From: a virus
Reading direction: 5' to 3' (one strand)
Length of the DNA stretch: 64,000 nt
IMG/VR virus record: IMGVR_UViG_3300001199_000005
Coordinates: 32,001-96,000 of that record
Part shown: positions 1 through 40,797 of the stretch, piece by piece
Numbering within the stretch: position 1 is the first letter of the stretch
How the letters are laid out: every line of letters begins with the position of its first letter
Notes under the pieces: generated by a model
The model's input: the letters and a program-made list of their open reading frames with translations, nothing else
Told to the model about the DNA's origin: nothing
Database searches by the model: none
Program-made: the position numbers and the translations under genes

Positions 1-806
1 TCTAAGTTATTTATTCTCCTTGCACCAACAGCATATTTAATATTATGCGGACGAGTGTAAAGATAACAAACTGTTTTAGTTTTATTAATTTCTACAAAGT
101 TTTTGTAGTGGTCATCAATAAAAATATCTAAACCTAATTCTGTGCATAGTTCTGCTTTATCAACAACTAATGAGTAAACAGGTTTACATGGAAATTTGTT
201 TTTAAATAACCAAAGTTCGGTTAGATGTGCAGGAATAGGCCTCGCTGTTATATAACAATGAGGTTCAAACTTTAGATTTTTATTTAGCGGCTTAATCTTT
301 GCCCAGAATTCATCATCCTTAGCTAATTCTGTCAGCCTATCCATAACCTTATAATCAAAGTTCCAATGATAGAATTCTGGGTCTAAGTTATATCTTTCGC
401 AGTAAGCTTCGCCAAAGTCTGCAAGAACTTCATCAATATCTAATCCCACTTTTCGTTGAGTTTCCCAAGGTTTCTTTCTATTATCCAATTCAGGATGACT
501 ATGATAGAATTCACCAAGCATCATTAGATTCGCAGCAATATGATGTATGTGCATTAAACCTGATTCTTCATCATAATCTTCATAACTTTCAATTGCAGTT
601 AAATGCCTTTTAGCAGATGCCAACACATCTTTAAATGGTAGCCCTTTTCTCCAATTGTCAGCACCACTTATTTCTTTTCCATCAACTACAACGGTATACT
701 TATTAGCACCATAAGTCATTACTTTTCCTAGGCCTTCAATAAAACCAGGCTCGACTAGGTCAAGTCTGGTTTTACCTTGGTTATATCTTAAGCCTAATTC
801 GCTCAT
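1..806 (-). CDS. dATP/dGTP diphosphohydrolase (DUF5664-like) fused to a HAD-family 5'(3')-deoxyribonucleotidase; 3'-truncated by the window edge
   Basis: Manual translation from ATG 806: MSELGLRYNQGKTRLDLV...YGANKY...DNWRKG...RHL...DEESGLMHIHH, then HAD motif LDIDEVLADF; frame open to position 1. Confidence 0.75.
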   Translation of the reverse strand, partial: MSELGLRYNQGKTRLDLVEPGFIEGLGKVMTYGANKYTVVVDGKEISGADNWRKGLPFKDVLASAKRHLTAIESYEDYDEESGLMHIHHIAANLMMLGEFYHSHPELDNRKKPWETQRKVGLDIDEVLADFGEAYCERYNLDPEFYHWNFDYKVMDRLTELAKDDEFWAKIKPLNKNLKFEPHCYITARPIPAHLTELWLFKNKFPCKPVYSLVVDKAELCTELGLDIFIDDHYKNFVEINKTKTVCYLYTRPHNIKYAVGARRINNL

Positions 807-2071
807 AGTTTTTTAAACCTATCAGTAACTAATTGCAACTTATCTTCAAAAGACACAGTAGTGTCTTGTTCATTAGGCAAAGTAATATTAAGTTCATCAA
901 GAACTTGTTGATAGCGTTTTACACTATAATCTAAACCTTGCATAAACATATTGACATACTCAAATTCTTCTATATTTAAGCCTTGAGCTTGATTAAACAG
1001 TTTGTCTGTAAATGGTATAGTAAATACATCTACTTCATCATCATTAAATGCTTTAAGCATTTCCATATTTTTAAATTCAGTGAATGGATAAAACTGGGTA
1101 GTCCTAATTTTGTGATAACCATCAATAGGTACAGCACAAATATCTTTTGGGTCAACTAAGCAACCAAGCATTGTATTACCAAAGCCGCTAAATGCAAAGT
1201 CTTTGCTACCAAGGTGCAAGCCCTTTGAGCAGGTATTTGATTGAACTCTATCTACTACTAGACTGCTTTCTTGAGCTACTTTACCTATTTGATAAGTAAA
1301 TGTACCTGTATGAGCATCGGTATAGGTTCTTGCTGTTTCGTCATTAAGTGGTAAACTCACTATTTTGTAATAGTTTTCAAGCAGACCAACACCACCTTCT
1401 AGACCTTCAAATATTGAACCGTCTTCCATTACTCGTAAACCTTCTAAGTTAGCACCTTTTGATAGTTTATTGTTAAGAGCATACAAAGTTCTACGTAAGA
1501 AAGGAAAGCTTCCTTTCTTAGTTAAATTAGCTGCACGGTATGCAACTAAATAACCATCTGGAGTAATCTTAATACCATTATTCTTACACCATTTAAAAAT
1601 ATTTAATCTTACTGCTGGAGTAGGATTAAGAAGTAAATTAGCCCAGAAATTAGTATAAGCTGATACTTCTTCTTCTGTACCTTCTAATAATTGTTCAGTA
1701 AGGTCAGCAGGAACTGCTATCTTAATTCCTTTGTAAATCAAATTATCATTAAGAACTGAATAAACTGGATATTTAACACAGAAATCAGTCAAGACCTTAT
1801 TCCAATCTTTAATTTTTCTAGTAGCTTCATCAATTTCAAGCTTATGTGCAGTAAGCTCTTTTCCTTCTATTGTGTGTTCTTGGAAAAACTTTTTAAGTCT
1901 TGGCCCATTATCTTCATCAGCTGTTGGACTTGTTTTGTCTATATCCGCTAGACTTAATTGTAGTGTGACAAAATCGTCCAGACTGAATGTGCCTGTAAGA
2001 TACGTATCGGAAGACTGTAACCATACAGTCACTATATGGTTAGTTCCGTCACTGAATGCTGTTGTTGTCAT
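803..2071 (-). CDS. rIIB: T4 RIIB-like protein
   Basis: ITPDGYLVAYR and TCSKGLH motifs; directly follows an rIIA-like gene. Confidence 0.75.
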   Translation of the reverse strand: MTTTAFSDGTNHIVTVWLQSSDTYLTGTFSLDDFVTLQLSLADIDKTSPTADEDNGPRLKKFFQEHTIEGKELTAHKLEIDEATRKIKDWNKVLTDFCVKYPVYSVLNDNLIYKGIKIAVPADLTEQLLEGTEEEVSAYTNFWANLLLNPTPAVRLNIFKWCKNNGIKITPDGYLVAYRAANLTKKGSFPFLRRTLYALNNKLSKGANLEGLRVMEDGSIFEGLEGGVGLLENYYKIVSLPLNDETARTYTDAHTGTFTYQIGKVAQESSLVVDRVQSNTCSKGLHLGSKDFAFSGFGNTMLGCLVDPKDICAVPIDGYHKIRTTQFYPFTEFKNMEMLKAFNDDEVDVFTIPFTDKLFNQAQGLNIEEFEYVNMFMQGLDYSVKRYQQVLDELNITLPNEQDTTVSFEDKLQLVTDRFKKL

Positions 2072-4056
2072 TTTATTAATGTAGTAACTTCTTTTATCAT
2101 TGTACTTAAATTTAATTTATATTGTTCTAATAAGGCATCCTCCATGTCTTTCTTTTCTTTTAGTACTTCTGCATCATCCTGAAAACAGTTAGCGAACGGG
2201 CTAATGTACGATACTTTTGATATTGTTTCTGTAAGTGCGCAGAACTTTATCTTTTCTAGAATGTTTGAAGACATACCAACTTCAACAAACTTGCTAGGTC
2301 GGGGACTTACATAACTATATTCTGCCTTTGTAATACCTAATCGAGCACTCATTCTTTTGTAGAGCTCTGCAGCTGTCGGGTGAACAGAATCTTTCTTATT
2401 ATAACAATAGTGGTGCTCATTTAGTTCTTGTATCTTGGCCTTATTATTGCCGATAAAGTAATCTATATGCTGTAGAGTATTTCTTAGTTTTAGAGTTGTA
2501 GATGCATCAGCAAGAACTATTATTTCTATATTTAATTCTTTAGGAACTGGTGTATACAAATCTTTTTCTGCATGTTTACACCAAAATGGATTCCTCCCTA
2601 TAAGAACTGACTCTAATTCTTGTTTAAAAGAACCATTTCCAGGACTATAGGTAATCATAGGGTCAACAGTTTTAACTACTGGTTTAACATAACCAGGAGC
2701 TTTTGATATTTTAGGTCCTTTTAAAGTATCATACTCTTCTTTATTTAAAAAGAATAAATTTGCTACCTCTTCAACTACTTTTACTTCTTTATCACTATAA
2801 GACATATTTGTTACAATTTCCAGAATATACTTAGATTTCATCAATGCATCTTTAGCTTTATAAAATTTAGTTGTAGAAGATTTAACTGCTGCTTTATCTA
2901 AATCATCGTAGTTCAGAGCATCAATACGCTTCCACACTTTCTCTCTATTTCTATAATTCTTAAATTCTAAACTATAGAATCTAAATGTATTAATTATAAT
3001 TTTCTGAACATCTGCTAACCTCATATCAAACTTAAGACTAATAGTGTTAACAACACTATCCATTTTAACTTGAATAGGATAATTATAGTAATTAATAGCC
3101 TTATTAAATAGACACATGTATAGTGCTCTATTTTCATCAGTTTCTAATACTTTTGTTCCTTTTTGTGTTAGTTCGTTAATACACAGCTTAGCTTTATTCT
3201 CTAAAGCTTGTTCCAGTTTCTTATCAGAAATAAGTTCTTCTCTGTTTGGAGTTACAGCCAGTTCTCCTATATCAAATTTTAATACTATATCTTTAATATA
3301 ATTTTTAAGCTGGTTGTAGCTTTTTGGTATTACAGAAGGGTTTGGATATAAAACAGGGCCAAGAGCTATTCCATAACTAGAATCTACTATATAAAAATTG
3401 TCAAACTCAATTACTTTTGGTAGTACTACTTTGAAGTTATTAAGTATCACTCCTTTAAACAAAGGTACTATACTGACAACAGTATCTTCTATATTTTGAA
3501 AGTGTTCTGGTTTAATAGGGATACTAACTTTAGTTCCATTACGCTTATCAGTAGGTATTGCACCTAATGGTAAAATTTCAGGAACTGTATTATTTACTAG
3601 TTGGTATCTATATTCAACACCATCATAAACAGATACAATGTCCATAAAGTTATTATAAGCTAGGGCAGAAAATCTACCAATACCGAAACCACCAACAGTA
3701 CTATTACTTCCTCTTTTACTGGAAGCCCCTAGACTTTTATAAAGAGTCTCTATTCTTTCAGGAGATAGACCTAAACCAAAGTCTTCTATGTCTATGTACC
3801 CTGCTGCTTTTATTCCTCTTTTTGTAACTACTACAGGGCTTTTTTCTAATATGCCGTCTAATGATTCGCCTAAGTGTTGTGCTTTCTCTATTACTGCATC
3901 CTGTGCATTACATATTAGTTCTCTCAAACATGATTGTAATGGCGAAGCATAAGTATTAATAAGGAGATTGAAGGCATGCGCTACATTAGCTGGGTCAATA
4001 GTGCATAATATTGAACTCTGTGCTTGAATTTCATTTACTTTATAATCAACTTTCAT
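2068..4056 (-). CDS. rIIA: T4 RIIA-like protein (N-terminal GHKL/HSP90-like ATPase)
   Basis: LRELICNAQDA, IEDFGLGLS, SSKR, GGFGIG, NGT and TPNRE motifs. Confidence 0.8.
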   Translation of the reverse strand: MKVDYKVNEIQAQSSILCTIDPANVAHAFNLLINTYASPLQSCLRELICNAQDAVIEKAQHLGESLDGILEKSPVVVTKRGIKAAGYIDIEDFGLGLSPERIETLYKSLGASSKRGSNSTVGGFGIGRFSALAYNNFMDIVSVYDGVEYRYQLVNNTVPEILPLGAIPTDKRNGTKVSIPIKPEHFQNIEDTVVSIVPLFKGVILNNFKVVLPKVIEFDNFYIVDSSYGIALGPVLYPNPSVIPKSYNQLKNYIKDIVLKFDIGELAVTPNREELISDKKLEQALENKAKLCINELTQKGTKVLETDENRALYMCLFNKAINYYNYPIQVKMDSVVNTISLKFDMRLADVQKIIINTFRFYSLEFKNYRNREKVWKRIDALNYDDLDKAAVKSSTTKFYKAKDALMKSKYILEIVTNMSYSDKEVKVVEEVANLFFLNKEEYDTLKGPKISKAPGYVKPVVKTVDPMITYSPGNGSFKQELESVLIGRNPFWCKHAEKDLYTPVPKELNIEIIVLADASTTLKLRNTLQHIDYFIGNNKAKIQELNEHHYCYNKKDSVHPTAAELYKRMSARLGITKAEYSYVSPRPSKFVEVGMSSNILEKIKFCALTETISKVSYISPFANCFQDDAEVLKEKKDMEDALLEQYKLNLSTMIKEVTTLIK

Positions 4057-20582: not shown

Positions 20583-22381
20583 ATATTGAATTTTTCTACA
20601 ACAACTTTTACTTCGTCGTAGGCATTATTTCTATATGAAATATCTAACGCTGTATAAGGATTAAGAATATCCCAATCTTTTACATTCATAACTAGTTTGG
20701 TAATGTTCTCCACTTGACCAGGAACAAAAATAAGTCCAGGAACTTCTTTGAAATCTCTTACATCCCTGTTTTGTCCAACATCCATCAAGACAACAAGTTC
20801 TGGTCTGTAGCCAACTTCTACCTCCATAATCTTCATGGCTGCGTCAAATGAACGAACCACGTCACGCTCATTATTAAAGTTACCATCACTGATTAATAAC
20901 CAGATTGGATATGAACTAAGTAGTTCTCTAATACTATCCCTTTCAGCAAGACTGGCTGTTTTCATTATACCGTGTATAGCTTCGCCAATAGAAGCTAAAT
21001 TAGTACCATTCCCAGTTTGAATAGCTGATAAGAAACCACTTAACTGCTTATAGTTCTCCAACAAAGACTTTCTTTTATCTACCAACGGCTGTTTTGCTGC
21101 TTGCACAGCTTCACCAAATCTAGTAGCTTTCTTGTCAACGTAGGAAATATATCTAGCCTTATCAGAAAATGTCCAGAATCCTGAATCAGTTTCGGTCTTT
21201 AGCAGAACAATGGTAAGTAAAAACTTAGCAACATCAATAGGCTTAATGGAGCCACTAGAACCACCATACATAGAGCCACTATCATCAACAAACACCATTA
21301 CTTTATCAGTACCTAGCTTAACAGTCTTCAAATACTCTTCAGCAGCAAGAGCGTCCACAGTTTCAGTTCTTAAAGCTTCTAGTATTGTTTTTGTATTATA
21401 TACACCACGACTAACTTTAGCTTCTTTCTCTAATTGCTTTAAGTTGATTTGGTCGGTCAAAGATAACTCTTTGCCTTCGTTATCAGCTTTAAAATCTCGT
21501 AGTGTTTGATTGCTTTTCTCTTTCGATTCTTGCCATTCTTTGAAAATGTCAATCATAGGAGTATCTACAATCTTCCATAATTCAGGCTGTTTAACTATTC
21601 TATTATAGACTCGTTTTCTAGCACCACCAGTAAGGTGGTCAAGCCAAGTCAAGAAGTCTTGTTTAGTAAACTTAAGTATTTCCTTAGTAGAAAACATTAC
21701 TGACTCTAACTGCTTGTTATGTTCTTTCTTAAACTCTTCGGCACCGATATACCTAGTATTCTTAGGATAATATTTAATATCCCAATTCATTACTGAACTA
21801 AGCTCAATAGCGAACTTATGTTTTAGTCTTTGAGCGGTGACAGAGGCCTTTGACCTAGCTACTTTGATAGTCTTATCTTTTAACTTCCTCTTAGGCTTTG
21901 AATGAGGAAGTACTAACTGTTTAGCAGCTATTACTCTTCTCATAGGATTGCCCTTAACCCAAGCAGCGAATATTTTTGCCTGTGTAGCTAAATCATAGAT
22001 ATTGTTTCTATCTGTGGTTACATAGTATAGCTCTGATAATGAGGTGAACTCAATCAATACACGTACTATTGCTTCCAAGAATTCAGGTTTGTCTATAAAT
22101 TTAACAAATATCCAGTTAAATATTACTTGTCCTGACTTTCTATTAGCGTAACCACCAATAGTTCTTTGACTTTTCGCATAAATCCAATGCTGTCTATTTG
22201 TAATTGCAATACATTCTGCTAGTAATACAAAGAACAATTGTTTGTGCTCTTTAGTAGTACATTCATGCCAAGCATTAGTAATATCTGATTCTGAAATCAA
22301 ATCTTTACCTATTGCGTTTGATAATACCAGTAGTGCTGGTTTGTTATCAAAAGGGGTCTTTTTTTGAGTTAGTGTTACCAT
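20579..22381 (-). CDS. TROVE/Ro60-like (DUF2828-type) protein with C-terminal vWA domain
   Basis: 600 aa; basic helical N-terminus with RTIGGYANR; MIDAS VDDSGSM, TFS, GNGTN, LISDGNF; lies downstream of Y-RNA-like genes. Confidence 0.7.
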   Translation of the reverse strand: MVTLTQKKTPFDNKPALLVLSNAIGKDLISESDITNAWHECTTKEHKQLFFVLLAECIAITNRQHWIYAKSQRTIGGYANRKSGQVIFNWIFVKFIDKPEFLEAIVRVLIEFTSLSELYYVTTDRNNIYDLATQAKIFAAWVKGNPMRRVIAAKQLVLPHSKPKRKLKDKTIKVARSKASVTAQRLKHKFAIELSSVMNWDIKYYPKNTRYIGAEEFKKEHNKQLESVMFSTKEILKFTKQDFLTWLDHLTGGARKRVYNRIVKQPELWKIVDTPMIDIFKEWQESKEKSNQTLRDFKADNEGKELSLTDQINLKQLEKEAKVSRGVYNTKTILEALRTETVDALAAEEYLKTVKLGTDKVMVFVDDSGSMYGGSSGSIKPIDVAKFLLTIVLLKTETDSGFWTFSDKARYISYVDKKATRFGEAVQAAKQPLVDKRKSLLENYKQLSGFLSAIQTGNGTNLASIGEAIHGIMKTASLAERDSIRELLSSYPIWLLISDGNFNNERDVVRSFDAAMKIMEVEVGYRPELVVLMDVGQNRDVRDFKEVPGLIFVPGQVENITKLVMNVKDWDILNPYTALDISYRNNAYDEVKVVVEKFNI

Positions 22382-22597: not shown

Positions 22598-22906
22598 TCA
22601 TTTTTTTTCAAGTTTTGGATTATGAAATATTTTAACTGATTCAGCAAGTGCATCTATAAGTTCGTCTTCTCTAAATTTTAGCAAAGTTGTGCTTACATTG
22701 ACAAGCTTCCAGAACTTTGCATTAATATCGTATATAGAAGGTTTCTCAATTAAATATAATCTACATTGATAAAATACTTGAGTACCTGCATAACAGGTAT
22801 TAGTTTCTACATCCATTACTTCTAATAATTGGAATGAATCTTCCTCAAAGACAAGGTGTTTCTTTTGTACTAAATCACCTATTGAATACTTGGTTTTAAT
22901 GTCCAT
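22598..22906 (-). CDS. Hypothetical protein
   Basis: 102 aa, MDIKTKYSIGD-type phage N-terminus. Confidence 0.6.
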   Translation of the reverse strand: MDIKTKYSIGDLVQKKHLVFEEDSFQLLEVMDVETNTCYAGTQVFYQCRLYLIEKPSIYDINAKFWKLVNVSTTLLKFREDELIDALAESVKIFHNPKLEKK

Positions 22907-23697: not shown

Positions 23698-23703
23698 GTT
23701 TTG

Positions 23704-23802
23704 TGCGGAAAACTGGGGTCGAACCAGTAGAACATATTTCGCTTTAGTTTGTCGAGGTCTAAAGCCTTTGAAATACTGCTTTGCCAATTTGCATATTTCC
23801 AC
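23704..23802 (-). ncRNA. tRNA-like RNA (Leu-like body) with greatly extended anticodon arm
   Basis: Acceptor GTGGAAA/TTTCCGC + A; D arm TGC-AAATTGGCAAA-GCA; T arm ACTGG-TTCGACC-CCAGT; anticodon arm GTATTTC/GAAATAT + GCTTTAG/CTAAAGC. Confidence 0.7.
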
Positions 23803-30972: not shown

Positions 30973-31069
30973 TGTCTTTCCTGTTTAAGGTTTTTAATTC
31001 TGAAGTTCTATTTAGTAATAAAAAAAAATAGTGAATACAAATACAAAAACTATGGTTCGATACCAAGGG

Positions 31070-31152
31070 TCCCGTTGAAGGGACTCGAACCCTCACGACT
31101 TTCGTCAAGGGTTTTTAAGACTCTCATGTGCTACCAATTTCATCACAACGAG
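31070..31152 (-). tRNA. tRNA-Leu(UAA)
   Basis: CTCGTTG/CAACGGG acceptor, loop CTTAAAA, long variable arm, GAGGG-TTCGAGT-CCCTT. Confidence 0.9.
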
Positions 31153-31158
31153 ATATTG

Positions 31159-31242
31159 TACCTTTAGAGAGATTCCAACTCTCAATTCCTCTCGGAAAAC
31201 GGGGTCTAAATCCGTTGCGTTTTGCAGTTTCGCCATAAAGGT
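31159..31242 (-). tRNA. tRNA-Leu(UAG)
   Basis: ACCTTTA/TAAAGGT acceptor, loop TTTAGAC, long variable arm, T loop TTGGAAT. Confidence 0.85.
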
Positions 31243-31334: not shown

Positions 31335-31985
31335 TTAAAATTTTGATTTTATCCATTTCCTAATAGCATTGTCTGATACTCCATATTTTCTGCCAGTTCC
31401 ACAATATCCTAAATGTGATACATCATCCAATAATATTTCTAAAGCAGGTCTAATTGTTTTTCTACTAGATATTAAATAACTTTTTCTTAGTTCGGTGAGT
31501 TCTTTTGTAGTTTTCTTTTTAGCTTTTTCTTTTCTATTATTTTCCCTATCTTTTTTTGTTTTCAGCGAATGACAGTTTGGACAAAGTATTTGTAAATTTT
31601 TAAGGGAATTATCTAAATGGTTAGAATTTATATGGTCTAATTCTAATGGTATTTTTTCACTACACCATGTACTTAGTCCACAAAGTTCACATTCATCTTT
31701 TTTATAACCCTCGTTAATTAATCTTTTTCTTAACCCGCTACTAGCAATACCCCTTTTTCCAGATAAATAATCATCAATTGGGTATTTAAGTCCTTTAGGT
31801 TTTGAATTAAATGGTTTGCTACCAGTAAAATGTGTGTTGTCTATATTAAAAAACATACTTACTTTTTTAATATGTGATTGTGAACCGCCTCTTGTAGATA
31901 GATTTAATTTTCTACACACCTCAGACCAGTTATAACTACTTTTTACGATTAATTCGAGTTCTTCTTTTTTGTATTTAGTTTTCAT
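31335..31985 (-). CDS. HNH homing endonuclease inside the tRNA cluster
   Basis: CELCG...LELDHINSNHLDNSLKNLQILCPNCH. Confidence 0.88.
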   Translation of the reverse strand: MKTKYKKEELELIVKSSYNWSEVCRKLNLSTRGGSQSHIKKVSMFFNIDNTHFTGSKPFNSKPKGLKYPIDDYLSGKRGIASSGLRKRLINEGYKKDECELCGLSTWCSEKIPLELDHINSNHLDNSLKNLQILCPNCHSLKTKKDRENNRKEKAKKKTTKELTELRKSYLISSRKTIRPALEILLDDVSHLGYCGTGRKYGVSDNAIRKWIKSKF

Positions 31986-31997
31986 TGTAATTTTTAG

Positions 31998-32069
31998 TAG
32001 CGTATGAGAATTTCGAAATCTCGTCCTCCTGGCCCCAAACCAGGTAATCTTCCTCTGATATAATACGCT
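31998..32069 (-). tRNA. tRNA-Pro(UGG)
   Basis: AGCGTAT/ATACGCT; CCTGG-TTTGGGG-CCAGG; T loop TTCGAAA. Confidence 0.85.
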
Positions 32070-32079
32070 ATATCTTGTG

Positions 32080-32151
32080 TGTGCCTAATCAGGGATGAAC
32101 TGACAACTACCTGTTCCACAAACAGGGGCTTTACATTAAGCTATAGACACC
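32080..32151 (-). tRNA. tRNA-His(GUG)
   Basis: G-1 + GTGTCTA/TAGGCAC; CCTGT-TTGTGGA-ACAGG. Confidence 0.85.
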
Positions 32152-32169
32152 ATATAACAAAAACTATTG

Positions 32170-32242
32170 CGTTCAAGGTGGGTATCGAGCCCACTATCCT
32201 TAGTTTAACAAACTACCGCTGTACCATACTAGCTTCTCGAAC
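32170..32242 (-). tRNA. tRNA-Asn(GUU)
   Basis: GTTCGAG/CTTGAAC + G73; loop TTGTTAA. Confidence 0.85.
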
Positions 32243-32250
32243 AGGCATAT

Positions 32251-32287
32251 AAACAAACAGCCCAACCTAGTTAAAGATTGGGCTGTT
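32251..32287 (-). terminator. Attenuator terminator upstream of the Asn/His/Pro/Leu tRNAs
   Basis: AACAGCCCAATCT/AGGTTGGGCTGTT stem + TGTTT. Confidence 0.75.
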
Positions 32288-32312
32288 ATGAATTACTAAT
32301 ACAATTGCAATA

Positions 32313-32378
32313 TCATCCCACCCAATCTGATTGGTTATTAAGATGTTGCGGTTGTAAGAGAGAATTTATAAATTGCAT
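32313..32378 (-). CDS. Putative attenuator leader peptide MQFINSLLQPQHLNNQSDWVG
   Basis: 21-codon ORF rich in Gln/Asn/Leu with Pro and His; its 3' end is complementary to the terminator 5' arm. Confidence 0.72.
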   Translation of the reverse strand: MQFINSLLQPQHLNNQSDWVG

Positions 32379-32393
32379 TTGTTTTTGTTTAGT

Positions 32394-33086
32394 TTATTTG
32401 GTTGCAGGGGTTGGATTTGAACCAACGTATCCTTTTGGGATAGCCAGCTTATGAGACTGGTGAACTAGGCCTCTATTCGACCCTGCTATATTTACAGATA
32501 TTAATTTATTATCGTATTCCCAGTGATGATTAGGACAAAGAGCTATCAAATTATCAATATGATTAATAACACTTATTAAGGTATCATTTGAAAACTCAGA
32601 TACTGCTTTTATATGAGCAATCTCAACGTGCTTATCGTATCCACAGATGTTACATTTCTTTTCTTTTAAAGATTCTTCAAAATTTAAACAAGCATCTTTT
32701 CTTATCATAGTTCTAGCTGTTTGCCAATTTTTAGAATTTTCAAATTGAAATCCCTTTGTTCTATCCCCTACAACTCTTTTTATCTTTTTGCATTTTTTAT
32801 TGCAAAACAAACTTGCGGTTGACTCAAAAACTGTACTACAATTTTTACATTGCTTTGGTTTCGATTTCCTTTTTGGACTGTTTTTATTATTAAGTTTAGC
32901 GGCGCAAGAACGAGAACAAAATTTATTAATTCTATTTTTGTAATCTATTTTCTTATTACATAACTCACATCTTTTTGGATTATTGTTGTATTTTGTTTCA
33001 TTCTCTATAAGTTTGTGCTTATTTTGACATGATACATCACAGAATTTATTTTTAACTTCCTTCTTACAACAAAGACATTTATTCAC
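32394..33086 (-). CDS. HNH homing endonuclease with Cys-rich repeats; ORF runs through the tRNA(CAU)
   Basis: CNICG...EIAHI...NLIALCPNHH. Confidence 0.85.
   Translation of the reverse strand: MNKCLCCKKEVKNKFCDVSCQNKHKLIENETKYNNNPKRCELCNKKIDYKNRINKFCSRSCAAKLNNKNSPKRKSKPKQCKNCSTVFESTASLFCNKKCKKIKRVVGDRTKGFQFENSKNWQTARTMIRKDACLNFEESLKEKKCNICGYDKHVEIAHIKAVSEFSNDTLISVINHIDNLIALCPNHHWEYDNKLISVNIAGSNRGLVHQSHKLAIPKGYVGSNPTPATK
32399..32487 (-). tRNA. tRNA with CAU anticodon (Met/fMet or Ile2), unusual long variable arm
   Basis: A1:A72 mismatch, CCAGT-CTCATAA-GCTGG, variable stem TATCC-CAAAA-GGATA, encoded CCA. Confidence 0.8.
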
Positions 33087-33156
33087 AGCTAGTATATTAT
33101 GCCGTAAATTTAATACATAAAAATTTAACTTCCAAATATGAAATATTTGTAATTAG

Positions 33157-33227
33157 CACACCGTAGAAGAATCGAACTCCTATCGTTAAGGTTGGAACTT
33201 AACATGCTACCATTGCAACAACAGTGT
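33157..33227 (-). tRNA. tRNA-Trp(CCA)
   Basis: ACACTGT/ACGGTGT + G73; TTAAG-TTCCAAC-CTTAA. Confidence 0.8.
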
Positions 33228-33232
33228 ATTTG

Positions 33233-33322
33233 TGGGTGTAGAAGGAATCAAACCTCCGACGATTCTTTACGAATTTTGAATTTACAGTCCAATGCAGCCT
33301 AATCAACAGCTGTCGTACACCC
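33233..33322 (-). tRNA. tRNA-Tyr(GUA)
   Basis: GGGTGTA/TACACCC + A; loop CTGTAAA; long variable arm. Confidence 0.85.
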
Positions 33323-33329
33323 GTGTTAG

Positions 33330-33417
33330 TAGAGGGTAGGAGATTCCAACTCCTGATACGCTATTAACGTATTGCTTATTTTCAAGATAAGTTCTTCGTG
33401 ACATCCAGACACCCTCT
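33330..33417 (-). tRNA. tRNA-Ser(UGA)
   Basis: AGAGGGT/ACCCTCT; CTTAT-CTTGAAA-ATAAG; long variable arm. Confidence 0.82.
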
Positions 33418-33421
33418 ATTT

Positions 33422-33509
33422 TGGCGGAGAAAGTAGCATTCGAAACTAATTCCTTTCAGAACACATTGTTTAGCAAACGAGTTTAAGCAACCTGCCTAAT
33501 TCATTCTCC
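33422..33509 (-). tRNA. tRNA-Ser(GCU)
   Basis: GGAGAA/TTCTCC + GCCA; loop TTGCTAA; long variable arm; weak anticodon stem. Confidence 0.75.
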
Positions 33510-33513
33510 TTAT

Positions 33514-33551
33514 AAAACAAAAACACCTTCCTATTTACATAAGAAGGTGTT
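33514..33551 (-). terminator. Attenuator terminator upstream of the Ser/Ser/Tyr/Trp tRNAs
   Basis: AACACCTTCTTAT-GTAA-ATAGGAAGGTGTT + TTTGTTTT. Confidence 0.8.
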
Positions 33552-33572
33552 AGATTTTGTTTATACAATATT

Positions 33573-33632
33573 CTAGCAACCTTCTCGAAGAAAGTACCAC
33601 GAACTAGAATAAGTATAAGTAGTTGTTTTCAT
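33573..33632 (-). CDS. Putative attenuator leader peptide MKTTTYTYSSSWYFLREGC
   Basis: 19-codon ORF with a run of Thr/Tyr/Ser/Trp codons; its AGAAGGT is complementary to terminator ACCTTCT. Confidence 0.75.
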   Translation of the reverse strand: MKTTTYTYSSSWYFLREGC

Positions 33633-33650
33633 TTTAGCTTAATTTATTTG

Positions 33651-33682
33651 CAAATATAATTTGCTTAAGCTATACTTCCAAA
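33651..33682 (-). promoter_or_regulatory. Bacteroidota consensus promoter for the leader/tRNA operon
   Basis: TTTG-N20-TATATTTG, 18 bp upstream of the leader ATG. Confidence 0.75.
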
Positions 33683-34701: not shown

Positions 34702-36185
34702 TCATAGATTTATTTTTTTAAGTTTAATGACGGAATCTTTTTTAAACAGAATTTGAAATTCTGTTTCTATGTAGTCTGTTGCTTCAAGCTCGTAAGCAGT
34801 GAAGCCTATTTTCTCGAACTCCTTTATGTCTTCTTTGGAAAAGGCCATAAGGAGTTGGTCTAAAGATTTGTAAGCAAAGTAATATGGTCTGATTTCTTTA
34901 TAACTCATTTCACGTATCTTGGGGTCTTCAAACCTATTTGGAAATGCAGGGCTTGAATGCCTATATCTAATAGAAGCTTGATTTGGGTGCGTACTCAATA
35001 TATCAACACCGTCTACTACAGAGTTAAATGGACCTATTCCTGTCTGATTGTGCTCTATTCTGTATGCAGTAATTGGACTAGATATTAACCGCAGCGTTAT
35101 AGAATTAATTTTTGCATGAACAAATCGGAACATTTCCTGCCAGCGTATTAACTGTTCCATGATAGAATTACTTTTGGGTCTATATTTAACTTTAAATAAA
35201 GCTTCTTCGCAAGTTCAATGTTAAGCTTGCGTTTACCTTTCAGGAATTTACAATGATTGACAACTAATCCTGTAATAGGACAAGTCAATCTGTTAGTGTT
35301 GATTAGGCCAATCCAATGATGCTTACGAAGAGATATTTTTTCCATTGTTTTACACTCTTCGATGAACTCTAGCAGAGTCAGGAATTCTAGTGGGACGTAG
35401 TTACCCATCTAATTTAACCGGCTCAACCTTTTTGACTAAGGATTCAAAATAAATCTCTAAAAGGTCTTCGGTGGATACACCGGCACATTCACCAGCAAAG
35501 TCAAACCATTCGTCTTGGTTAAACTTATTCTGGTAATACTTTCCTGTGGTCCATTGCATGAACGCACTAATTTCTTTCCTGCTCATTTATTGTGATTATT
35601 ATGTTGTTATCATCTTTACAATCTACTGTAAAATATTTATTGTCGGATATAAATACGTCGTATATTAAATCATATTTATCTTCACCCCATTTTGAAAATA
35701 GAATTCTATACCCATCTTCAAAAGTTTTAAGGTTAATGCTATTAATAACACGCATCTTATCTACACCTAAATACATTACAGGCGGTTTACCATGCTCAGA
35801 TAGTCCCCAAGAACATTCTTTATTATCTTTTCTAAAGACGTAGTCAATTGGGTTATAGCTGCTTAGAAATATGCTTTCATAATCCTCTATTTCCTTTTTA
35901 CCACAGTGCTCTAAACAGGTTCTCTTGAACCCTTTGTCTACTAGATACTGTTGAAATCCGGGCAGTTTAGTTGTTTCCATTAATTTGTTTTATATTTGAA
36001 TTGCTTGGGTTGGTAACAACATCATCACTGTTACCTACATATACTAGTCTGCTATCGGAATCAGACGGCTCTTCGTCTAAAGGGACCATTTCGGTGTACT
36101 CAATACCATTAATGAAGTGGGGTGCTATTCCTAAGTGCGTCAAGATTCCCTTCTGGTTAACTGAGTGATAAAATTTTTTTAACAT
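34702..36185 (-). CDS. Run of small hypothetical proteins (34702-35160, 35148-35408, 35401-35586, 35567-35980, 35967-36185)
   Basis: Overlapping same-strand ORFs; 35148-35408 ends in a HigA-like HTH fragment KGKRKLNIELAKKLYLKLNIDP. Confidence 0.55.
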
Positions 36186-37249: not shown

Positions 37250-37507
37250 TTAAGTCTCTTTGTCATTTTTCATTAGGGGTTTAGGTAATGGTTGCCAATG
37301 TGTGGCTAAGAAATGGTGTGATACACTGCTTGAGGGGCTACTCATTAGACGTTTACCGTCGTAAGACATAGCTAGTGCTATTTTAGCACCGTTTTCATCA
37401 CCATCTGGAAAGTACCCTATTACAAGTGTTTCTATCGGCGGCATCTTCTTAGTGACGGGTATCCATCTACTGAAGAGAGAGGCGATAAAGTTTATTATCT
37501 TCTTCAT
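37250..37507 (-). CDS. DUF551-like phage protein
   Basis: WIPVTKKMP...THWQPLPKP. Confidence 0.75.
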   Translation of the reverse strand: MKKIINFIASLFSRWIPVTKKMPPIETLVIGYFPDGDENGAKIALAMSYDGKRLMSSPSSSVSHHFLATHWQPLPKPLMKNDKET

Positions 37508-38266: not shown

Positions 38267-38341
38267 GCCGCAGCTAAGGGAATCGAACCCATAGTAACCA
38301 ACCCAAGACTCTTAGACTTTCGTAGCATCTTGTAGCTGCGG
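38267..38341 (-). ncRNA. tRNA-like RNA or pseudo-tRNA
   Basis: 9-bp CCGCAGCTA/TAGCTGCGG stem and GGG-TTCGATT-CCC T arm; no canonical D or anticodon arm. Confidence 0.5.
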
Positions 38342-40292: not shown

Positions 40293-40797
40293 CACATTCT
40301 GGCATTTTAATGGGTTAGCCTTCCCGTTTAGTTTTAGTGCTCTTTCTATTAAGCCCAGCATCAGGGCACCACAGTCATCAGAAACTATTTATTTTTACGT
40401 GCTGTGGACACGACATACTTAGTATGCGAAAAATAAGCCCCATTGTACACTTGCCTTATTACAGGCTGGGCTTTTTATTTATCCTCGTCGTGCATACGAG
40501 GTTTTCCATCCGCTCAGTATAGAGGTTCTTCGACCTCATCTACTAACTCAATATAGCCTAATCGAAGGCCTTTATCGAGTTCAGCAAGACTCTTTTGAGT
40601 CCAAGCCTCTGGACGAGACTGAACATCAGCAGGAGTCTGCTGGTCGCGGATTGCCCTATAGACCCACTCTACTGAGTGGTCTTCTGGGCGTCGTAATCCT
40701 TTCGCCATATAGATTAATGTTAGGAAGCCGGTTGTCCAGTTATCAGATATTGCGATTGCAATAGCAAGATTCGAACTCACATCTCTCCCTAACATTG

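Follow-up and report, generated by a model that had tools for sequence, protein, structure and literature searches.

Putative leader-peptide attenuators in series before the tRNA genes of a distant crAss-like phage

The DNA analyzed here is a 64,000-nucleotide (nt) stretch, referred to as the window, that covers positions 32,001 to 96,000 of the IMG/VR virus record IMGVR_UViG_3300001199_000005, and the elements in question are two short leaders that stand directly before blocks of transfer RNA (tRNA) genes. These leaders are probably two paralogous ribosome-mediated (leader-peptide) transcription attenuators that, arranged in series, would gate the main tRNA operon of the phage. A first-pass annotation, made by a model from the letters alone, had proposed an attenuator of the trp/his type before one tRNA cluster. 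That proposal gained from the geometry of the leader, its balanced helix energies, its start context, the placement of its codons, and the finding of a second leader, and it lost ground on Thr codons that match no tRNA, on weak Ser tRNAs, and on relatives in which none was found.

Results

Two leaders with the same layout precede the tRNA genes

All elements of leader 1 and of its second copy lie on the minus strand (Table 1). As the first-pass annotation had described, a promoter match precedes a 19-codon open reading frame (ORF), spelled exactly as given there, a strong terminator follows, and the mutually exclusive pairings 1:2, 2:3, and 3:4 all form in folds. The promoter match follows the Bacteroides consensus TTTG-N20-TAnnTTTG as quoted in PMC7366714, with a predicted transcript start ∼12 nt ahead of the leader 1 ATG; an A-rich 12-nt stretch lies between the promoter match and the ORF. 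The ORF opens with four Thr codons, its codon 6 is Tyr, and codons 8 to 13 read TAT TCT AGT TCG TGG TAC. At the tip of the 1:2 hairpin, positions 33595-33589 pair with 33585-33579. Four tRNA-type genes then begin within ∼2 bases of the element formed by the terminator hairpin and its T-run. The gap from terminator to first tRNA is ∼11 to 13 nt in both leaders, which leaves no room for a promoter. Terminator 1 has an A-rich tract on its upstream side and a T-run on the other, so it reads as a terminator in both directions.

A second copy of the same layout was found 1.2 kb downstream (32400..32246), directly after the CCA end of tRNA-Met(CAU). Codons 10 to 15 of its ORF are CCG CAA CAT CTT AAT AAC, and the ORF holds four Gln codons. 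Region 2 of this leader is an 8-nt segment perfectly complementary to region 3 in the 5′ arm of the terminator, and it also pairs with the 6 nt just upstream (region 1). The terminator hairpin ends 13 bases before tRNA-Asn(GUU). The stop codon follows region 2 one codon on in leader 1 and two codons on in leader 2. Alignment of the two leaders showed a 14-nt 5′ motif, a 9-nt spacer motif, and the terminator flanks in common, whereas the ORFs and all four pairing segments are completely different, with the 1:2, 2:3, and 3:4 pairings kept in both. The 14-nt motif occurs only at the two leaders in the 153-kb genome; its 77 matches in IMG/VR include none with a tRNA following within 600 nt. Either one element was duplicated and all four segments changed together, or the design arose twice. 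Either origin points to selection on the alternative pairings.

This layout could also be read as a stand-alone small RNA gene of ∼130 nt, or a dual-function micropeptide RNA, with the second copy being a 3′-trailer RNA of tRNA-Met and the tRNAs being expressed otherwise. The order seen here, a promoter and then, ∼130 nt on, an intrinsic terminator, is canonical for small RNA genes, and both RNAs are highly structured. However, neither matched an Rfam family, no other promoter for the tRNAs is visible, and such a gene predicts neither the match between codons and tRNAs nor where the stop codon lies with respect to region 2. We consider this explanation very unlikely.

Table 1 Features of the two leaders and of the tRNA genes around them (window positions)
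Feature	Position	Strand	Basis or remark
Bacteroidota-type promoter match, TTTG-N20-TAnnTTTG	33682..33651	-	Consensus match; presumed host group
Shared 5′ motif CAAATAAAYTAARC, 14 nt, first copy	33637..33650	-	Common to both leaders
Leader ORF 1, 19 sense codons and TAG	ATG 33632 to TAG 33573	-	ORF reading
Extended 1:2 hairpin, leader 1	33561..33618	-	Folding; encloses second half of ORF and stop codon
Antiterminator span, leader 1	33542..33585	-	Region 2 (33585-33579) with region 3 (33548-33542, terminator 5′ arm)
Intrinsic terminator 1, 13-bp stem, GTAA loop, T-run	Hairpin 33551..33522, with T-run to 33511	-	Hairpin scan and fold
Degenerate tRNA-Ser(GCU)-like gene, encoded CCA	33510..33423	-	Alignment; no Rfam or default ARAGORN call
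tRNA-Ser(UGA), weak call	33417..33329	-	ARAGORN at lowered thresholds only
tRNA-Tyr(GUA)	33322..33232	-	Solid call
tRNA-Trp(CCA)	33227..33156	-	Solid call
HNH homing-endonuclease gene	33086..32394	-	Frame runs through tRNA-Met(CAU) to stop at 32394
tRNA-Met(CAU)	32399..32487	-	3′ end abuts leader 2; overlapped by end of HNH ORF
Second copy of 14-nt 5′ motif	32387..32400	-	Genome search
Leader ORF 2, 21 codons and TGA	32378..32313	-	ORF reading
Leader 2 pairing segments	Region 1 32334-32329, region 2 32328-32321, region 3 32282-32275	-	Folds
Intrinsic terminator 2, 13-bp stem, 6 G-C pairs, T-rich tail	Hairpin 32287..32256, element 32246..32287	-	Hairpin scan and fold
tRNA-Asn(GUU)	32242..32169	-	First tRNA behind leader 2
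tRNA-His(GUG)	32150..32079	-	Behind leader 2
tRNA-Pro(UGG)	32069..31997	-	Behind leader 2
HNH homing-endonuclease gene, inserted	31985..31335	-	Between Asn/His/Pro and Leu/Leu tRNAs
tRNA-Leu(UAG) and tRNA-Leu(UAA)	31067..31242	-	Downstream of inserted HNH gene

Modeled folds depend on ribosome position

Both leaders folded better than dinucleotide shuffles of the same sequences (z = -4.96 for leader 1 and -4.88 for leader 2), and none of 200 shuffles was as good. The predicted helix energies were -16.5, -13.6, and -16.8 kcal/mol for the 1:2, 2:3, and 3:4 helices of leader 1, respectively, and about -15, -19.8, and -20.5 kcal/mol for those of leader 2; in these models, the energies are balanced as in classical attenuators. 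The transcript was then folded as it stands before region 4 emerges, with a ribosome footprint, from -15 to +12 relative to the first base of the A site, held single-stranded. In leader 1, the 2:3 antiterminator was the minimum-energy fold (-13.6 kcal/mol) with the A site at codons 3 to 12; it was weak with the A site at codon 13 and gone from codon 14 to the stop codon. In leader 2, it was the minimum-energy fold (-19.8 kcal/mol) with the A site at codons 1 to 13, partial at codon 14, weak at codon 15, and gone from codon 16. The Ser/Tyr/Trp run of leader 1 (codons 8 to 13) is thus predicted to occupy the last stall positions that still free region 2.

The start contexts of both ATGs fell at the 44th to 54th percentile of the long-ORF starts of this phage, close to the median, and at the 96.8th (leader 1) and 94.8th (leader 2) percentiles of all ATGs. 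By this sequence measure, both contexts are typical of the genes of the phage, and both leaders may be translated.

The pattern exceeds chance, and leader codons partly match downstream tRNAs

The feature is real and goes far beyond chance. The full pattern was defined in this genome as at least 8 contiguous pairs between an upstream segment and the 5′ arm of a terminator-like hairpin, a neighboring 1:2 hairpin, and an ORF of 12 codons or more that starts with ATG and ends no more than 15 nt past region 2. Among 46 terminator-like hairpins on both strands of the whole genome, only the two leaders showed it. They are the two terminators of this genome that precede tRNAs (2 of 2), compared to 0 of 185 other hairpins overall, including 0 of 118 and 0 of 23 hairpins in the tRNA regions of relatives, where looser cutoffs were used. 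When the 107 nt upstream of each terminator were shuffled, the structure alone arose in 7 of 5,000 and 6 of 5,000 shuffles, and the structure together with the ORF geometry arose in 0 of 5,000 for each leader.

Leader 1 contains the only six-codon run made up entirely of Ser, Tyr, and Trp codons among the 622 ATG ORFs of 15 to 30 codons in the genome (P about 0.0016); leaving out the degenerate Ser(GCU)-like gene, the match is five of six codons (P about 0.005). In the leader 2 run, four of six codons are for Asn, His, or Pro (P = 0.02 to 0.03). In a ranking by codon match of the 153 small ORFs that this genome and its relatives have within 110 nt upstream of tRNA clusters, the two leaders took first and third place. 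The earlier claim that the leader codons are those read by the downstream tRNAs is supported by the six-of-six Ser/Tyr/Trp run but weakened by the state of the two Ser tRNAs and by the unmatched Thr codons.

These controls bear on another alternative, namely that both hairpins are ordinary terminators, insulators, or RNA-processing hairpins, that the ORFs and the complementarity came about by chance or by local hairpin duplication, and that nothing is regulated. A tandem duplicate of a hairpin automatically yields 1:2, 2:3, and 3:4 complementarity, chance alone gives ∼20% of the terminator-like hairpins in this genome a complementary 8-bp segment upstream, and nothing is conserved outside this genome. 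Nevertheless, we judge this alternative unlikely: it does not account for the restriction of the full pattern to the two tRNA-preceding terminators, for pairing segments that differ between the copies while every pairing is kept, or for the codon matches in both leaders. Moreover, with no promoter between terminator and tRNA, a strong constitutive terminator would silence the tRNAs.

The tRNA genes and their surroundings

The first-pass annotation had listed tRNA-Ser(GCU), tRNA-Ser(UGA), tRNA-Tyr, and tRNA-Trp behind leader 1. The Tyr and Trp genes hold up, Ser(UGA) was called only at relaxed thresholds, and Ser(GCU) does not stand as an intact tRNA. The latter locus has six of seven acceptor-stem pairs, a canonical T arm, G73, a variable arm, and an encoded CCA, and in alignments it stays in register with relatives' Ser(GCU) tRNAs, the anticodon loop reading UUGCUAA. 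Only three of five anticodon-stem pairs are present, its fold is no better than those of shuffles, ARAGORN called it only at an 80% threshold and with a poor fold, no tool names it tRNA-Ser, and the Rfam tRNA model gave no match at E ≤ 10. By alignment, it is a degenerate Ser(GCU)-like gene. The Ser(UGA) gene was likewise missed by the Rfam tRNA model at E ≤ 10, and it aligns in register with the Ser tRNAs of relatives.

Two HNH genes are inserted among the tRNA genes, and the tRNA region of phage T5 is similarly interspersed with HNH genes. Elsewhere in the window, a tRNA-like element with an acceptor stem and a T arm (38267-38340, minus strand) lies just upstream of tRNA-Lys(CUU) and was called Leu(AAG) by relaxed ARAGORN only, and a T-arm-like fragment (40740-40796, minus strand) lies just past tRNA-Arg(UCU).

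The phage and its relatives

The record behind the window is 152,878 bp long, with an estimated completeness of 85%. Because its large terminase (TerL) is 46% identical to that of an unannotated human-gut phage scaffold and ∼30% identical to those of crAss-like phages of Bacteroides, and because it carries genes for a portal protein, RIIA/RIIB homologues, and a DNA polymerase, the phage is probably a large, distant crAss-like phage, with a presumed host among the Bacteroidota. The RIIA- and RIIB-like genes of this crAss-like genome lie at 803-4056 of the window on the minus strand (PHROG matches with E values of 7e-44 and 7e-23).

Relatives were collected by terminase alignment. This gave 36 large IMG/VR genomes with TerL 40 to 46% identical, of which 26 carry 1 to 34 tRNAs, and one GenBank scaffold with tRNAs. 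The first-pass annotation had suggested that leader codons might track the tRNA sets of related phages; this idea found no footing, since no leaders were found in the 27 tRNA-carrying relatives, all of them distant. Comparison of the leader DNA with the 36 relatives gave only noise, the match in G027 sitting inside a gene start. A search of IMG/VR with a 24-mer of the tRNA-Tyr gene found no close relative, and a blast search of the tRNAs against GenBank phages gave only three matches. Tenacibaculum phage PTm1, considered as an outside test case, has no tRNAs.

What the relatives do have is hairpins. Ten of their tRNAs have a hairpin and T-run no more than 45 nt upstream, none with a leader ORF or with 1:2 and 2:3 pairings. 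Several of these hairpins have a GNRA tetraloop cap and a conserved loop. The long pre-tRNA hairpins (MT835539.1 4100-7100; L087, L088, and L094) have GNRA-capped conserved loops, e.g., CTCGTGAGAG and GTCTGTGAAGATA, and covarying stems, and a 23-nt hairpin occurs twice, identical, in MT835539.1. Candidate roles for this hairpin family are punctuation, processing, or termination. From these comparisons, terminator-like hairpins are common before tRNAs in the group, and two of them appear to have acquired leaders in this lineage.

One insert in a relative was considered as an analogue of the leaders. In G005 (L085 6080-6256, plus strand), 153 nt between tRNA-Trp and tRNA-Ser(UGA) contain an ORF of 12 codons, four of them for Ser, and, 11 nt before the tRNA, a GC-rich hairpin with a T-run. 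It was rejected: the anticodon UGA does not read the Ser codons present (TCC, AGT, and AGC), and sister genome G007 lacks the insert. Outside the group, the 91-amino-acid (aa) ORF T5.072 of phage T5 (AY543070; record 35617-35892, minus strand) lies just upstream of a tRNA-Tyr/Glu/Trp/Phe block and contains a stretch of 14 residues, 10 of which are Trp, Glu, Tyr, or Phe (rough P about 0.006, corrected for 14 tRNA-adjacent ORFs). The case is suggestive but was rejected as an attenuator leader: its geometry differs, with a terminator and the annotated promoter P14a between the ORF and the tRNAs. T5.070 (42 aa, 6 Cys) precedes tRNA-Cys but resembles a zinc ribbon.

Most relatives (L085-L104 and MT835539.1) carry 20 to 34 tRNAs, among them suppressors whose anticodon is CUA or UUA, which implies stop-codon reassignment in those genomes. 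For this reason, reassignment was also considered in the genome studied here, which has only ∼12 tRNAs. It was rejected: there is no suppressor tRNA at default ARAGORN thresholds, and the long ORFs are intact under code 11. At an 85% threshold, there was one weak call reading TAA (23703-23794, "Stop," anticodon UUA); other weak calls at that threshold were at 20703-20795, 22776-22855, and 37311-37396.

Discussion

Proposed mechanism and points against it

In the proposed mechanism, transcription would start at the promoter match, and a ribosome would load on the A-rich 5′ end and translate the 19-codon leader. If the ribosome runs freely to the stop codon, region 2 would be covered or the 1:2 hairpin would re-form, the terminator would form, and transcription would stop before the tRNA genes. 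If instead the ribosome stalls at the Tyr, Ser, or Trp codons (codons 6 and 8 to 13), region 1 would be masked and region 2 left free to pair with the 5′ arm of the terminator once this is made, so that no terminator forms and polymerase reads through into the Ser-like, Ser, Tyr, and Trp genes. Leader 2 would then repeat the test with Leu, Pro, His, and Asn codons before the Asn, His, and Pro genes, followed by the two Leu genes. The net effect would be a feedback loop in which slow decoding of these codons prompts synthesis of the tRNAs that read them. Speculatively, the trigger might be an anticodon-nuclease defense or starvation.

Several observations weigh against this reading. First, the record, including at relaxed thresholds, contains no tRNA-Thr or tRNA-Gln (within its estimated 85% completeness), leaving the four Thr codons of leader 1 and the four Gln codons of leader 2 without a cognate; for Thr, the first-pass annotation had noted this in the window, and it extends to the whole record. 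Second, two of the four tRNAs that leader 1 would sense, both Ser, are weak or degenerate. Third, the codons of leader 2 fit less well: with the Leu tRNAs counted, the match is five of six but not significant (P = 0.09 to 0.11), and the two Asn codons lie at the edge of the stall positions that permit the antiterminator or just beyond it. Fourth, equilibrium folds of the full leader always gave the terminator and never the antiterminator; the switch must therefore be kinetic, and this is why transcripts cut before region 4 were folded. The terminator is also favored at equilibrium in classical attenuators. Fifth, the promoter motif is not enriched, with 4 matches in the 64-kb window compared to 1.8 expected by chance; the value of the match is its position, not its frequency. 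Finally, conservation is lacking. The 27 tRNA-carrying relatives without a leader of this kind (26 from IMG/VR and 1 from GenBank) are distant, with TerL 40 to 48% identical; no close relative was found, blastn of the region against GenBank phages gave no DNA match, and the upstream 78-aa protein has no homologue in IMG/VR or in a set of 5.8 billion proteins.

Some of these points would fit a switch that is real but is run by a phage or host antitermination protein, by a change of RNA polymerase during infection, or by folding kinetics alone, with the ORFs being incidental. The hairpin and T-run elements directly before tRNAs in relatives have no leader ORF, which means that such hairpins can work without one; the unmatched Thr and Gln codons point the same way, and crAss-like phages use more than one RNA polymerase. 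However, a switch of this kind leaves unexplained why well-started ATG ORFs end one to two codons past region 2, a geometry that no shuffle reproduced, and why cognate codons occupy the last permissive stall positions. We regard it as improbable and favor leader-peptide attenuation as the probable explanation.

What the leaders would mean for phage tRNA supply

When and why phages carry and express tRNAs is debated, with compensation for codon usage and escape from tRNA-cleaving defenses as the competing views. A broader proposal, which we rate as evenly balanced, is that the two leaders form a tRNA-supply homeostat, in which codon-matched attenuators in series turn on blocks of tRNAs only when decoding is slow. 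If this is so, the trigger could be host tRNAs that are scarce for the codon usage of the phage or that have been cut by anticodon-nuclease defenses. Under leader-peptide attenuation, the supply of phage tRNAs would be demand driven, and a compact element of about 130 nt would be a direct decoding sensor in a virus. The codon content of a leader could then predict which tRNAs the phage treats as limiting in its host. Such control would also be the first known case of leader-peptide attenuation controlling RNA genes, extending a textbook mechanism from enzyme operons. Consistent with the first-pass annotation, which was not aware of attenuation being described for tRNA genes, full-text searches of an incomplete library turned up no report of tRNA genes, phage or cellular, under leader-peptide attenuation.

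Comparison with known systems

The nearest structures in related phages are the hairpins between tRNA genes of crAss-like relatives, which also place a strong hairpin and T-run 4 to 14 nt before a tRNA and are in several cases GNRA capped like terminator 1. In those phages, however, the spacers are often too short for a leader (66 to 79 nt), and there is no ORF and no 2:3 plus 1:2 complementarity. T-box riboswitches likewise switch between terminator and antiterminator according to the state of a particular tRNA, but they do so by direct binding of uncharged tRNA, independently of translation, and their targets are synthetase or amino acid genes. A T-box reading was rejected, as the leaders matched neither the T-box nor the leader families of Rfam (His, Leu, Thr, and Trp leaders) at E ≤ 10. 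A PyrR binding site was rejected as well; its Rfam score of 30 bits, compared to a threshold of 54, reflects only the hairpin-terminator layout.

A further related system is Escherichia coli pheST, where the pheM leader provides leader-peptide attenuation of the gene for the cognate aminoacyl-tRNA synthetase. There too, attenuation is applied to a gene of the translation apparatus, but what is made there is a protein enzyme specific to one amino acid, whereas here each leader would control tRNAs for three or four. There is also a parallel in design with the enterobacterial amino acid attenuators (trpL, hisL, leuL, thrL, pheL, and ilv). Like the two leaders, these combine a short ORF and an intrinsic terminator with 1:2, 2:3, and 3:4 pairings that exclude one another; the control codons cluster immediately ahead of region 1, and the stop codon adjoins region 2. 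The thr and ilv leaders each sense several amino acids, as each leader would do here. In contrast to these attenuators, the leaders described here are in a phage, probably of Bacteroidota, have no Shine-Dalgarno sequence, and stand two in series in one operon. Finally, the regulated genes would be tRNAs rather than enzymes, so that the loop would act on the very tRNA pool whose decoding capacity it senses.

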